40,000 nt of DNA from an uncultured Clostridia bacterium (GTDB lineage Bacteria; Bacillota; Clostridia; TANB77; CAG-508): assembly GCA_949388605.1 (NCBI GenBank), contig CASKJV010000001.1, positions 114,352-154,351 on the forward strand, given 5' to 3'. Shown here piece by piece: positions 19,205 to 29,359 of the stretch. The translations under genes and the position numbers were made by a program. The notes under the pieces are model-generated. The model saw nothing but the letters and a program-made list of their open reading frames with translations, was not told the DNA's origin and ran no database searches. The number at the start of each line of letters is the position of its first letter. The first letter of the stretch is position 1.

Positions 19205-19372
19205 TTGAAAAAAGTATTAAGAATGTTTTTATTAAGTATCTTCTTGGCATTTTTGTTATTTGTAACAATATGCTTTGAAGATTTGAAAGTAAGAATGGGT
19301 ATTATAATTTTTATGTACTCATTCTCTTTTTTTATAATTATGAATTTTGGAGGTGATAGTAATGAAAGTTAA
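19205..19372 (+). CDS. Possible small membrane protein
   Basis: TTG start after AAGGTGA. The 55-aa product is largely hydrophobic. Weak support. Confidence 0.3.
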   Translation: MKKVLRMFLLSIFLAFLLFVTICFEDLKVRMGIIIFMYSFSFFIIMNFGGDSNES

Positions 19373-20117
19373 AATGGTAAAAATGGGGAGTGATTATACA
19401 ACTCCTATAAATTGTAGGATGAGAGGGATTGTTGTTACATCAGATAACAAGCATTTATTTGTAGAAATAGGACATGCATACAGTCCAAATATTAAGCATA
19501 CATCATTATCTCAAAAAGAATATGACTTAAAATATCCTAATGCACAATATGTTTCTGTAGATTTTTGTTTTAGAGTTGATATTCCAGAAGATTACTATAA
19601 AAATACAACTAAAGAATATAACAAATATATTAGAGAAAACTTTTTTGAGATTCCCTATACAGAAAAAGGTATTATAGAATTTTTGAGAAAACTTAATAAT
19701 AATATTGATGGTATAGAATTAGTAGATGATTATTATATAGATAAATATTGCGAAGAAAATGGATTTTATGAATTGTATGATGATAGGTTGAAACATAAGT
19801 ACGAGATATTATCAATAAAATATCTTGATCCAAATATAAAAAATGATAGTAGCATTATACACAAATATACTTGTTATGCAAAAGATGGTACAGAATTTAG
19901 CGAAAAAAGAGAAGAAAAGGATAACATTAAAAATATTGTTAATAAATATGGTAAAGAAAATGTTAAACCACTTGCAATAGAATATATAGATAAAATGTGT
20001 AGAACTTTCACAAAAATAGAATTAAAAGAAAAATTTAATCAATTACTAATTGAAGTATTTGAAACAAATAAAGATGAAAATACATTAGAAATTGATAATG
20101 ATTATACAGATATATGA
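19362..20117 (+). CDS. Hypothetical protein
   Basis: ATG 5 nt after GGAGGTGA. No motif recognised. Confidence 0.55.
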   Translation: MKVKMVKMGSDYTTPINCRMRGIVVTSDNKHLFVEIGHAYSPNIKHTSLSQKEYDLKYPNAQYVSVDFCFRVDIPEDYYKNTTKEYNKYIRENFFEIPYTEKGIIEFLRKLNNNIDGIELVDDYYIDKYCEENGFYELYDDRLKHKYEILSIKYLDPNIKNDSSIIHKYTCYAKDGTEFSEKREEKDNIKNIVNKYGKENVKPLAIEYIDKMCRTFTKIELKEKFNQLLIEVFETNKDENTLEIDNDYTDI

Positions 20118-20132
20118 TTGGGGTGAATTACA

Positions 20133-21230
20133 ATGAATGTTGATATTATTGAGAAACCTAAAAAGAATATTAGTGAAGATATAAAAGTTAGTTCTTCTAC
20201 AGATATTTTAAAGTTAAAAGATGTTCAAGAGATTAGAAATGCAATCCGTGAACATCTTTTATTTATTGGATTAGACAATAGAAATAATGTTAGAAATATT
20301 ACTTTATTAGGAATTGGAACTTCTTGTAATGTTGTAATAGATACAAAAGAAATTATAAGAACTGCACTCTATTCTGCAAGTAATAAGGTTATTTTAGTAC
20401 ATAATCATCCTTCAAATAATTTAGAGCCAAGTAATGAGGATTTACATTTAACAAGTGTAACAAATGAAATGTTAAAAGTATTTAATATTCAACTTCAAGA
20501 CCATATTATTGTTACTGAAAAAGATCATATTAGTATGGATAAGATACAGAAAATCAGCAAAGAAAAGAATATTAAGTCTATAAATAATTTGAAAAAGGGA
20601 TTGTTATTAGAAGAAAATGAAAGATTAAAACAACGAATAAATGAACTACAAAAAGAAGTAGGAAAGTCTAATTCATTAGAAATTGTTTCTGCTGAATATG
20701 TAGGAAGTTATAATGATACTACTGTCTATAATGTAGAAATATCTTTAAATGGGAAAAAAGAATATGTAACATTAGAAAGAAGTTATAATGACAGGACTTC
20801 AAGTCATAAATGGGAAGTATTTTCAAATCTAGGATTAAAAGATGAAGAAACAGACTATATTATTCAAATTGTATCTAAAAATCCTCCAGCAATGTCTATT
20901 GATGAACCATCTAAAATATATAATCAAGATATAGAAGAAAACATAGAGGAAACAATTACAAGCATATTAGATTTAGACAATAAAAACTATTTTACAGTTG
21001 CTAGAGTAATGGAAAATAATAAGTGTGTAGAACTTCATTACAATAGTGGAAAAGCTCATATTGAATATGGAATAAGAATAAGGGAAGATACTTGGGAGAA
21101 TGAAATTAAAGAAGATATTAAATGGTTCAATTTAGGACTTACAGATGATGAGGTTTTAGAGCACTTAAATAAAGAATTTGAATATTACTTTATTGAAAAA
21201 GAAATTGAAGTAGATTATAACAAATATTAA
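20133..21230 (+). CDS. RadC-like JAB/MPN domain protein with a ~200-aa C-terminal extension containing an internal duplication
   Basis: JAMM motif LVHNHPSNNLEPSNEDLHLT. The C-terminal halves each end in FSNLGLKDEE or WFNLGLTDDE. Confidence 0.8.
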   Translation: MNVDIIEKPKKNISEDIKVSSSTDILKLKDVQEIRNAIREHLLFIGLDNRNNVRNITLLGIGTSCNVVIDTKEIIRTALYSASNKVILVHNHPSNNLEPSNEDLHLTSVTNEMLKVFNIQLQDHIIVTEKDHISMDKIQKISKEKNIKSINNLKKGLLLEENERLKQRINELQKEVGKSNSLEIVSAEYVGSYNDTTVYNVEISLNGKKEYVTLERSYNDRTSSHKWEVFSNLGLKDEETDYIIQIVSKNPPAMSIDEPSKIYNQDIEENIEETITSILDLDNKNYFTVARVMENNKCVELHYNSGKAHIEYGIRIREDTWENEIKEDIKWFNLGLTDDEVLEHLNKEFEYYFIEKEIEVDYNKY

Positions 21231-21247
21231 ATCAAAGGAGAATCAAT

Positions 21248-27139: not shown

Positions 27140-27171
27140 TCTTTTTTTATTTAGAAAGGAAAATAATTACA

Positions 27172-27948
27172 ATGAATGAAATGGAAAAATTTTTAAATTT
27201 TGGTGCAGTTGTAAAAATAAGGCGAAGTTTTGATGATGATCTTCTAAAATTTATTGAACTTATGAAAAGTGTAGGCTTTTTAAAAGAATATATAGAATGT
27301 TTTGAAAAAAATTGTTGTTATGATAAAGAGTTCAATGAATTTTCAGAAAGTCAATTTTGGCATTATGTAGAAATAAATAATGGAAATAGGAATGACACGT
27401 GTATTGAATTTCAATGGAGTAAAGGATTTACTTGGGGAGATAGAAAAGATTATTTAAACTATGATAGTGAAATGAAAATATTAAATGTAGATGAACTAAT
27501 ACATGCTTGTAACAAGGAGCATTTATTTAAAATGAACTATGAATATACCGATTTCAAAAATGAATTACAAGATAAAGAAAGTGCATCTAATTTAGATTAC
27601 TTTTTAGACTTTTATGATTGGTCTATTACAAAATATCCAGATGGAAAATATAACATAAAAGATGAACAATGCAACACTTTTGATTTTGAAGAAAATACCA
27701 CACTAGATAAAATTCTTAATAGAGTTTATTTTAGAATGTTTGATTATTTTACAGATGAAGAAGATATTGAAGAACTTATGAAAGAAGATTCTCAATATGT
27801 AAAAAAGAAATATGAAAGTTATATGAGAACTGGAGAAAAACTGCATCTATTAGATGAAGATAATAAGAAACATTATACAGAGTGGTTTCAAGAAATTATA
27901 AAGGGAAATGAATCAAAAAACACTATCGAAATGAATAATGATATGTAA
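27172..27948 (+). CDS. Hypothetical acidic protein
   Basis: ORF with AAAGGAAA upstream. D/E-rich. Confidence 0.55.
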   Translation: MNEMEKFLNFGAVVKIRRSFDDDLLKFIELMKSVGFLKEYIECFEKNCCYDKEFNEFSESQFWHYVEINNGNRNDTCIEFQWSKGFTWGDRKDYLNYDSEMKILNVDELIHACNKEHLFKMNYEYTDFKNELQDKESASNLDYFLDFYDWSITKYPDGKYNIKDEQCNTFDFEENTTLDKILNRVYFRMFDYFTDEEDIEELMKEDSQYVKKKYESYMRTGEKLHLLDEDNKKHYTEWFQEIIKGNESKNTIEMNNDM

Positions 27949-27973
27949 AAAAATAAAGAATTGAGGTAATAAA

Positions 27974-29359
27974 ATGGATGAAAAAAGGAAAGAAAAAATT
28001 GTAAAGTTTTTTAGAGAAATTTTAAATGTATATGATTTTCAATTAGTAATTGATACTAACAAAAATCTAGAAAATGTATTTAGATTAAGTGATAATCAAA
28101 AAGGAAATCTAAATGGAATAGAACAAGAAGAATTTTATACGTTAGCAGATATTATTAGTCGACTAGATACTTATCATCAAGACATTGTTTATACACCACT
28201 TGAAAATAAACAAAATAGTAATGAGAAAATTCCAAAAGATGATTGGGATTTAGTTGCTAAAAGATATTTAGAAAGCGATGTTGTAGCAAGAGTTTTAGAT
28301 GAAGTTGATACAAAAAAATATGTTGAGTTAATTAACAAAAAAGAAAAATTTAAGATACAAGATATTATAAAAATACTTGATGAAGATGAACAGTTTTGTA
28401 AGAGTGTTTGTAAGAAATATATAGATACAATGTCAAAGGAAATGTTACTAGAAATCAATAATAAAATTATACACATTTTTATCGAAGATGACTATATAGA
28501 ATTAAAAGAGGAAGGAAAAATAAACATACAAAATTATAAAGAATATTTAGATGGAGATTTTAACATATATGAATACAATTCATATCAAGAATTATACAAT
28601 TCTTTGGTAAAGGATGAGATTGCTTATGACCTAAATGACTTGGCATTATTTGATGAAAAAGGTAATTGGGATTTCTATATTACTTTTGAAGAATTGAAAA
28701 AAGTTGGATATGGATATATGGTAAAAGACCAATTTCCATTGATAGAAAAATATGCAGTACCAGAAGAAAAAATATTTGAATTTTTTGAATATTTTACGCT
28801 AGAACAACTTGAAGATTTTGAAGAAACTTTACATTTATATTTTGAAACAAATGATATAGAATATGATAAAGATACTTTAGAATTATATTCAAAATCAAAT
28901 CAACAGTTCAATTCTAATATAATTTGTTTAGCAGAGGGAGCTGAATCATTAGAAGATTTTTTAGAAGATTACAAAGGACAATCTCTAAATTATTATGATT
29001 TAGTCCTTTCAAAAGTTATAGAATATTTTAGAGAAAACAAGATAAAAGATTTAATGGAATATGGAAATGATGCAGATGAAGGATTATATCATTTTTCTTC
29101 TATGTATCAAGAAATAATGGATAAATTAGATATAAAATATTCAAATGTTTACACAAAAGATATATCAGATGGCAAGTATTTAACAATTATTATTTTTGAA
29201 GATAATTCTTCTATAAAAATAGATACAAGTGCTTGGAATGACAGAAAAGTTGTTGCAGAAAATGTAGAATCTATTTGTAAAAAATATGAAGAAATAAAAG
29301 AAAAAATGCTTCAAAATGTTGTAAAAAACGAAACAGAAATTGAATATGGTTTTAATTAA
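27974..29359 (+). CDS. Hypothetical, very acidic 461-aa protein
   Basis: ATG after GAGGTAA. D/E-rich throughout. Last gene before the structured non-coding element. Confidence 0.6.
   Translation: MDEKRKEKIVKFFREILNVYDFQLVIDTNKNLENVFRLSDNQKGNLNGIEQEEFYTLADIISRLDTYHQDIVYTPLENKQNSNEKIPKDDWDLVAKRYLESDVVARVLDEVDTKKYVELINKKEKFKIQDIIKILDEDEQFCKSVCKKYIDTMSKEMLLEINNKIIHIFIEDDYIELKEEGKINIQNYKEYLDGDFNIYEYNSYQELYNSLVKDEIAYDLNDLALFDEKGNWDFYITFEELKKVGYGYMVKDQFPLIEKYAVPEEKIFEFFEYFTLEQLEDFEETLHLYFETNDIEYDKDTLELYSKSNQQFNSNIICLAEGAESLEDFLEDYKGQSLNYYDLVLSKVIEYFRENKIKDLMEYGNDADEGLYHFSSMYQEIMDKLDIKYSNVYTKDISDGKYLTIIIFEDNSSIKIDTSAWNDRKVVAENVESICKKYEEIKEKMLQNVVKNETEIEYGFN

Follow-up and report, generated by a model that had tools for sequence, protein, structure and literature searches.

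Does the run of small, acidic genes between the type IV secretion system (T4SS) genes and the presumed origin of transfer (oriT) of a conjugative element from an uncultured Clostridia bacterium form an anti-defence island that enters the recipient early? The run (the block, or island, at 19205-29359) lies in a stretch of 40,000 nucleotides (hereafter the window; contig CASKJV010000001.1 of assembly GCA_949388605.1), which carries an integrative conjugative element (ICE) with a T4SS of the Gram-positive type. In our view, the block fairly probably serves this ICE as its establishment (anti-defence) module, which would enter early after a nick in the minus strand. An earlier note, made from the letters of the DNA alone, had described a leading-region anti-defence island. 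Its anti-restriction genes and its position beside an oriT candidate stood up to analysis, and the gene order proved to be IncI1-like, whereas the expected strand polarity is no more than plausible, the orientation is not particular to the island and no promoters acting on single-stranded DNA (ssDNA) are evident in it. Genes are named below by their first position in the window, and their coordinates are collected in the table.

By family assignment, the block carries recognised anti-defence genes, namely ArdA and an N6_N4 DNA methyltransferase (MTase) without a restriction endonuclease (REase), and together these two represent bona fide counter-restriction functions. Pfam confirmed all four of the identities that had been proposed (RadC, beta-class MTase, ArdA and DUF2958). 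The 23386 protein matches PF07275 (E=2e-19) over model positions 1-154 of 155, and its closest solved relative is Orf18 of Tn916 (2w82, E=1e-6), the ArdA of a Firmicutes ICE; its sequence and its strongly acidic, DNA-mimic composition both place it in the ArdA family. With inserted segments it reaches 224 amino acids (aa), against 165 aa in Orf18, and Tn916 differs further in that its relaxase is of the MOBT class, for which no enrichment of the leading region was seen (PMC11541004).

The 21248 protein matches N6_N4_Mtase (PF01555, E=2e-22) and the PADLOC model MTase_II (5e-21), and its N-terminus matches AbiEi (8e-6). Motif IV (DHPY, near aa 97) lies N-terminal to motif I (AGSG, near aa 297) and the order is therefore that of the beta class. 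Its orphan status is supported by a PADLOC search in which no REase model matched any island protein and by the gene that follows it, which varies between relatives. In the RadC-like protein, PF04002 covers aa 32-137 of 365 (E=8e-28), the JAMM motif (HNHPS..D) is intact and PDB entry 2qlc matches at 6e-16. The C-terminal half of the DUF2958 protein resembles aa 139-241 of the 27974 protein (blastp, 35% identity, 2.5e-11), and this shared domain of ~105 aa points to domain shuffling within the island; in several relatives the DUF2958 N-domain is found on its own (123-139 aa).

Twelve clear genes are encoded on the + strand within 19362-29359, separated by gaps of -11 to +56 nt and each preceded by a Shine-Dalgarno (SD) sequence, and the starts at 19362 and 23030 agree with independent gene calls on identical metagenome contigs. 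The thirteenth member of the co-directional run described earlier is a 55-aa open reading frame (ORF) with two transmembrane (TM) segments at 19205-19372. It is 59-71% identical in relatives L007 and L059, is not called in the metagenome annotations and probably belongs to the T4SS module rather than to the acidic island. The acidic composition holds for the 12 genes (isoelectric point (pI) 4.20-5.27, D+E 17-22%, net charge down to -45) and fails for the 55-aa ORF, which is basic and hydrophobic. A pI below 5.3 is found in all 12 island proteins versus 6 of the 27 other proteins of the window (Fisher p=4.7e-6). Compared with orthologues in 8 related loci, the island genes show dN/dS of 0.07-0.39, which argues that all 12 are real genes under purifying selection.

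Many metagenome contigs carry the identical element, one of them 210 kb long and from mouse gut. Eleven genomes of gut Clostridia (Clostridium sp. CAG:389, CAG:440 and metagenome-assembled genomes) encode relatives of its relaxase at 83-88% identity, and an invariant 24-mer from the non-coding core described below retrieved 34 further gut-metagenome loci. The ICE family is thus seen in 45 independent loci and is widespread in mouse and human gut Clostridia. The proteins of 27172 and 27974 are present in 11/11 related genomes and those of ArdA, 24050 and 24929 in 9-10 of the 11; those of 22339, 23030 and 26672 are variably present. In relatives, other conflict-type genes stand at the position of the block, among them genes for Api92-like DUF1281_C proteins, a DUF3267 zincin, a GNAT acetyltransferase, a metallophosphatase and an alpha/beta hydrolase, and two relatives (L004 and L008) carry a 668-aa LPD1/LPD5 polyvalent-type protein in the same island. 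The gene content of the island is therefore mosaic among relatives. A core gene set is fairly stable across the 45 loci, which leaves room for conjugation-accessory roles.

A T4SS module upstream of the block and a candidate oriT downstream of it, as claimed earlier, are borne out by the Pfam layout and by a conserved non-coding core at 29419-29585. Past the T4SS genes, no + strand terminator is predicted before the one at 29371-29397, and the block ends within 60 bp of the core, on the side away from the relaxase. The stretch that follows the terminator has 38-43% GC (the window as a whole about 26%) and contains stacked hairpins. Folded as ssDNA, 29405-29625 gave z=-6.6 for the minus strand and -5.2 for the plus strand, and in a scan of 160-nt windows no other part of the 40 kb folded as stably as 29401-29600 (-30 to -32.5 kcal/mol; the windows averaged -8 to -9.5, with a standard deviation of 3.6). 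The two strands are too alike in folding energy to indicate which is transferred.

The core is 87-96% identical across nine aligned related loci, versus 69-90% nucleotide identity in the flanking genes, and the genes of these loci are at dS 0.4-1.2. Two of its hairpins carry compensatory changes. It lies between a 27974-type gene and the genes for a basic 203-aa protein (b203), a NikA-like protein, the relaxase and a C5 MTase in every locus that has both flanks. Some relatives carry cargo genes inserted on either side of it, and the core is therefore autonomous and not a leader of b203. No Rfam family matched anywhere in the window at gathering thresholds, so the core is not a known RNA, and searches of the region and of its core against the PLSDB plasmids (megablast and blastn) found nothing. 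Judged from these sequence features, the core is most probably an oriT of an undescribed sequence type, and it is the only strong oriT candidate in the window.

The core includes the segment CTGGGAGAT at about 29419-29430. Two candidate nic sites, ATCCTC inside a core hairpin and TACCCTGT at 30272, were rejected as not conserved in relatives. The last hairpin of the core (29553-29583) has a loop that, read on the minus strand, is GCGAAGCG, and in the other clade GCAAAGCG; at the base of the stem, a compensatory change from C:G to T:A is seen in 5/10 loci. The sequence d(GCGAAGC) forms an unusually stable DNA mini-hairpin. The loop might thus hint at the strand that folds, and is not decisive.

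The arrangement agrees with that of IncI1 plasmids, for which we used one annotated IncI-type plasmid carrying NikA. There, nikA-nikB are preceded, in the same direction of transcription, by an antirestriction gene, ssb, psiB, psiA and ardA. Here, ardA likewise lies upstream of the oriT candidate and co-directional with a NikA-type gene and a PF03432 relaxase, and in both cases the ArdA gene is a few kb from oriT (in our element, the candidate). In ColIb-P9, transfer reportedly starts on the ardA side, with the transferred strand serving as template. Unlike IncI1, the block lacks ssb, psiB/psiA and any Frpo-type promoter or room for one; the T4SS is of the Gram-positive type, and the island appears to be part of the T4SS operon. 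Compared with plasmid MobC-relaxase pairs, the relaxase shows no more than 27% identity, it has no sequence relative in PDB, and the polarity of our element is here drawn by analogy.

According to Samuel et al. 2024 (PMC11541004), the relaxase usually lags, anti-defence and MTase genes stand in template orientation, and anti-defence genes fall within the first ORFs beside oriT (the first ~30 ORFs on the entering side), with MOBT, MOBP2 and MOBC as exceptions to the leading-region pattern. The block resembles those islands in placing an anti-restriction gene and an orphan MTase by the oriT candidate and away from the relaxase, in one orientation and mixed with uncharacterised families. Unlike them, it yielded no detectable homologues of anti-CRISPR (Acr) proteins or SOS inhibitors, and its orientation bias is common to the whole element; moreover, that study used known oriT sequences, whereas our oriT is predicted.

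Nearer in taxonomy is the pLS20 family (Val-Calvo et al. 2021, PMC8708921), with variable, mostly uncharacterised establishment genes that always include an anti-restriction gene or methylase. Our element is similarly a Firmicutes element with a variable cluster, including anti-restriction and methylase genes, beside conserved conjugation genes. In pLS20 these genes form several separately regulated operons (under the Reg repressor or the 400-600-bp EGeRS1), whereas here a single run of genes follows the T4SS genes. Iyer et al. 2017 (PMC5512222) counted RadC, ArdA, methylases and LPDs among the domains that conjugative elements use early in invasion, and proposed that domains of this kind (RadC, ArdA, LPDs) reach the recipient as proteins along with the DNA; unlike their polyvalent proteins, the domains here occur in separate small genes and not in one giant protein. 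In a distant Oscillospiraceae element, too, mobC and its relaxase gene are preceded by a run of co-directional genes, among them those for a DNA methylase and a macro-domain protein. The layout of the block is already familiar from plasmids, and its novelty is confined to the uncharacterised proteins.

These are the products of 19362, 22339, 23030, 24050, 24929, 26672, 27172 and 27974. The statement that they have no recognisable motif holds across Pfam, PHROGs, NCBIfam and PADLOC, none of which gave a significant match (PHROGs and NCBIfam returned matches at noise level only), and no LPD model of Pfam matches any of the eight. They form narrow, lineage-restricted families. The 24050 protein, with the N-domain motifs SDPxY, IGMDTA and DGxFGxVxEG, has 132 homologue clusters among 1.84e9 representatives and no Pfam or PDB relative, a profile search included. 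The 24929 protein has 126 homologue clusters. Its AF2 model, which is very confident, shows two domains (pLDDT 93.7, pTM 0.87) and has no neighbour in PDB (best E 0.22); compared with viral models, ~130 aligned columns match two uncharacterised human-gut-phage proteins (~125 aa; E 2e-6 and 6e-4).

For the 27172 protein only 118 homologue clusters were found. The 27974 protein has 254, its N-domain is absent in some relatives and its gene is the fastest-evolving in the island (dN/dS 0.27-0.39). AF2 gave a model of medium quality (pLDDT 77, pTM 0.44), for which PDB offered no significant neighbour (best E=0.24). A likeness to the Acb4 sponge of phage SPO1 (Foldseek, ~88 aligned columns, E=0.24) was rejected as not significant. 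On the Finegoldia plasmid pFMC, the homologue of 26672 stands in a co-directional run with a single-stranded DNA-binding protein (SSB), a zincin and a JAB/RadC protein. It is possible, and we propose it tentatively, that at least one of the eight acidic proteins represents a new anti-defence family directed against recipient immunity. Given the apparent co-transcription with the T4SS genes, such proteins may accompany the DNA into the recipient instead of being made there from the incoming strand, and the core would then be a new type of oriT for a widespread family of gut Clostridia ICEs; the leading candidates for new families would be the 24929 protein and the pair nearest the oriT candidate (27172 and 27974).

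In the reading we favour, the block, set between the gene for the T4SS cell-wall hydrolase and the terminator, would be followed by the likely oriT core, the NikA-like gene and the relaxase gene. Since the relaxase enters last in IncI1 and other MOBP/MOBQ systems, the analogy would place a nick on the minus strand of the core. First entry of the block, with the transferred strand as template, is on this analogy a plausible polarity. ArdA would then mimic DNA and block type I restriction enzymes, and the lone MTase would methylate the incoming element; RadC, DUF2958 and the eight acidic proteins are predicted to neutralise other recipient barriers or to aid establishment. The island would probably also be made in the donor together with the T4SS. 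It looks co-transcribed with the T4SS genes, because no terminator and no promoter-sized gap lies between them and the only terminator is that at 29371-29397, and such an operon fusion suggests a different or additional mode of expression. A sigma-70 promoter scan gave fewer matches than shuffled sequence and is uninformative in DNA of 26% GC.

Several observations weigh against this reading. The orientation of the block genes had been described as that expected of a leading region; all of them do point toward the oriT candidate, but the + strand carries nearly every ORF from 831 to 38299, hence orientation does not discriminate. Promoters of the Frpo or ssi type were not found upstream of the island genes: the island contains no Frpo-like hairpin and no gap longer than 56 nt, and its best-folding 160-nt windows reach -17.7 (minus strand) and -18.1 kcal/mol (plus strand), versus about -32 for the core. 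In pLS20, itself from Firmicutes, the establishment genes do not have the transferred strand as their template (PMC8708921), and the rule derived from F and ColIb therefore cannot be assumed here. We identified no nick site; the core contains neither of the canonical nic motifs, AAGTGCGCCCT of MOBQ and YATCCTGY of MOBP, and these show no enrichment. The orphan C5 MTase, which nearly all related loci have and which at dN/dS 0.07-0.13 is more conserved than any other gene of the region, lies on the other side of the relaxase, and the position of a methylase therefore leaves the polarity unsettled.

The structural comparison and the functional state of the element weigh against it as well. The earlier note had suggested DNA-mimic or decoy roles for the unassigned proteins and structure prediction with Foldseek as a check. 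Carried out for 24929 and 27974, this check brought no support: neither model matches a known anti-defence fold in PDB, and among viral models 24929 matched uncharacterised phage proteins only. The coupling protein and VirB4 genes carry one frameshift each; in VirB4, the extra base at ~16428 interrupts the DPxGEY motif, at a site that is no homopolymer (GAT CCT CAA-c-GGA GAA TAT). Identical splits (192+350 aa and 510+309 aa) recur in at least 4 independent metagenome assemblies, which rules out sequencing error and makes them genuine in this lineage, and this copy of the ICE may therefore be unable to transfer by itself.

A rival explanation keeps the gene content and reverses the polarity or the timing. 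If the + strand were transferred, or if the strand were irrelevant, the block would be an establishment module and not a leading region templated by the transferred strand. Its genes would be expressed in the donor, as the last part of the T4SS operon, and/or in the recipient only once second-strand synthesis, primed by the element's DnaG-like primase, had taken place, and the products would act as pre-made, possibly translocated factors, or upon escape from repression as in the pLS20/p576 regulons. The contiguity of the island with the T4SS genes (gaps of at most 56 nt and one terminator, at 29371-29397), the lack of ssDNA-promoter-like structure within it, the non-template precedent of pLS20, the protein delivery alongside DNA proposed by Iyer et al. 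2017, the conserved orphan C5 MTase just past the relaxase and the presence of a primase gene all agree with such a scheme. It is harder to reconcile with the typical position of MOBP/MOBQ-type relaxases on the lagging side (PMC11541004) and with a layout that mirrors IncI1, and anti-restriction genes that enter last would protect poorly unless their proteins were delivered. We regard this opposite arrangement as unlikely, while granting it appreciable weight.

It is a separate question whether the acidic proteins other than ArdA and the MTase counter defences at all, or serve as conjugation and maintenance accessories of the ICE family (relaxosome or T4SS chaperones, regulators, replication or partition helpers), their acidity reflecting a cytosolic, coiled-coil-rich composition. 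Their genes are interleaved with ArdA, the MTase and RadC, and in relatives their positions are taken by LPD1/LPD5, Api92-like, zincin and GNAT genes; the 24929 protein is in part similar to proteins of gut phages, which do not conjugate; and on an unrelated plasmid the 26672 homologue accompanies SSB, zincin and JAB genes. In view of these points we consider purely accessory roles rather improbable, even though ArdA, 24050, 24929, DUF2958, 27172 and 27974 recur in most of the 45 loci with little change of order, which is steadier than a typical hypervariable counter-defence hotspot, purifying selection acts on the genes, they appear co-transcribed with the T4SS, and the models of 24929 and 27974 matched no known anti-defence structure. 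That the block is defence or toxin-immunity cargo protecting the host rather than the element seems to us very remote. ICEs often carry defence cargo and the MTase does match type II MTase models, but no PADLOC defence model matched any other island protein, no REase partner was found and ArdA is an anti-restriction protein; a reading as a defence island was rejected, PADLOC having found no defence system.

Anti-defence islands adjacent to oriT are a recognised source of new immune inhibitors, and the evidence for them comes nearly entirely from Proteobacterial plasmids. The present locus adds a clean and conserved case from an ICE family that is common in Clostridia of the mouse and human gut, and its value lies in a defined oriT candidate and in eight uncharacterised, selected, acidic proteins as candidates. 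With an establishment module that is apparently fused to the T4SS operon and has no ssDNA promoters, it raises the question whether Gram-positive elements rely on early transcription, protein delivery or repressor escape.

Table. Features of the window in and around the acidic block (positions are those of the window).
Feature	Position	Strand	Remarks
DUF6550 protein	start of the Pfam-read layout, upstream of the SpaA-repeat adhesin		Pfam
Surface protein, 1484 aa, 11 SpaA/prealbumin-like repeats	1462-5916		Pfam
DnaG-like primase	7197-9581		Pfam
Type IV coupling protein, in two ORFs	10833-11411 and 11452-12504		Pfam
PrgI-like protein	between coupling protein and VirB4 ORFs		Pfam
VirB4, in two ORFs	14921-16453 and 16419-17348		Pfam
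NlpC/P60 hydrolase (T4SS cell-wall hydrolase)	17352-19193		Pfam
Block under study	19205-29359	+	
Small two-TM ORF, 55 aa	19205-19372	+	TTG start; SD AAGGTGA; basic and hydrophobic
Acidic protein, 251 aa	19362-20117	+	pI 5.25; no family match; dN/dS 0.23
RadC-like JAB protein, 365 aa	20133-21230	+	PF04002; uncharacterised C-terminal extension of ~220 aa
Orphan beta-class N6/N4 DNA methyltransferase	21248-22282	+	PF01555; N-terminal AbiEi-like winged helix-turn-helix
Acidic protein, 229 aa	22339-23028	+	N-domain also on Ruminococcus albus pRUMAL01; variably present in relatives
Acidic protein, 110 aa	23030-23362	+	dN/dS 0.09-0.23
ArdA anti-restriction protein, 224 aa	23386-24060	+	PF07275; pI 4.2; net charge -30
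Protein, 288 aa	24050-24916	+	N-domain (1-180) and acidic coiled C-tail
Two-domain acidic protein, 320 aa	24929-25891	+	net charge -30
DUF2958 N-domain (aa 3-99 of 252) fused to C-domain	25888-26646	+	PF11171, E=5e-18
Acidic protein, 155 aa	26672-27139	+	homologues on Finegoldia, Butyrivibrio and Pontibacillus plasmids
Acidic protein, 258 aa	27172-27948	+	22% D+E; in 11/11 related genomes
Acidic modular protein, 461 aa	27974-29359	+	net charge -45; gene nearest the oriT candidate
Intergenic region, 266 bp	between the block and the gene for the basic 203-aa protein		
Intrinsic terminator, hairpin and T-run	29371-29397	+	stem invariant in 10 aligned loci
Conserved non-coding core, 167 bp, GC-rich, multi-hairpin	29419-29585		best oriT candidate
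Conserved basic protein, 203 aa (b203)	29626-30237	+	uncharacterised; adjoins the core
Helix-turn-helix (HTH)-like protein, 113 aa	30329-30670	+	only in few relatives
NikA-like ribbon-helix-helix relaxosome accessory protein	30718-31194	+	PF21983, 1.2e-5, 25.8 bits against a cut-off of 27 (sub-threshold)
MobA/VirD2-type relaxase	31173-32807	+	PF03432, 5e-31
Second orphan methyltransferase, C5 cytosine	32854-34344		PF00145, 1e-77; directly after the relaxase
HATPase_c_4 protein, then LysR, radical-SAM and Spo0A-like genes	after the C5 cytosine methyltransferase		Pfam

Beyond the core, b203 is a possible relaxosome or regulatory factor. The region 30238-30670, with the HTH-like gene and the intergenic region preceding it, is found only in the window and in a few relatives (L004, L033) and represents a small indel between b203 and the NikA-like gene. 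At the other end of the layout, the SpaA-repeat surface protein (1462-5916) heads the conjugation module and is probably the mating adhesin; on R. albus pRUMAL01, a SpaA pilin also adjoins the homologue of the 22339 protein. Just upstream of the primase and outside the block, 6751-7200 encodes a very acidic protein of 149 aa (pI 4.4, 27% D+E) that has no Pfam match.

The radical-SAM gene (37399-38299) is split into two ORFs in different frames, and other assemblies call the same split (106+180 aa); in L001-L003 its two tblastn pieces share one frame. In relative L008, a group II intron (7515-10000 of that locus, with reverse transcriptase, maturase and HNH ORFs) interrupts the relaxase gene.

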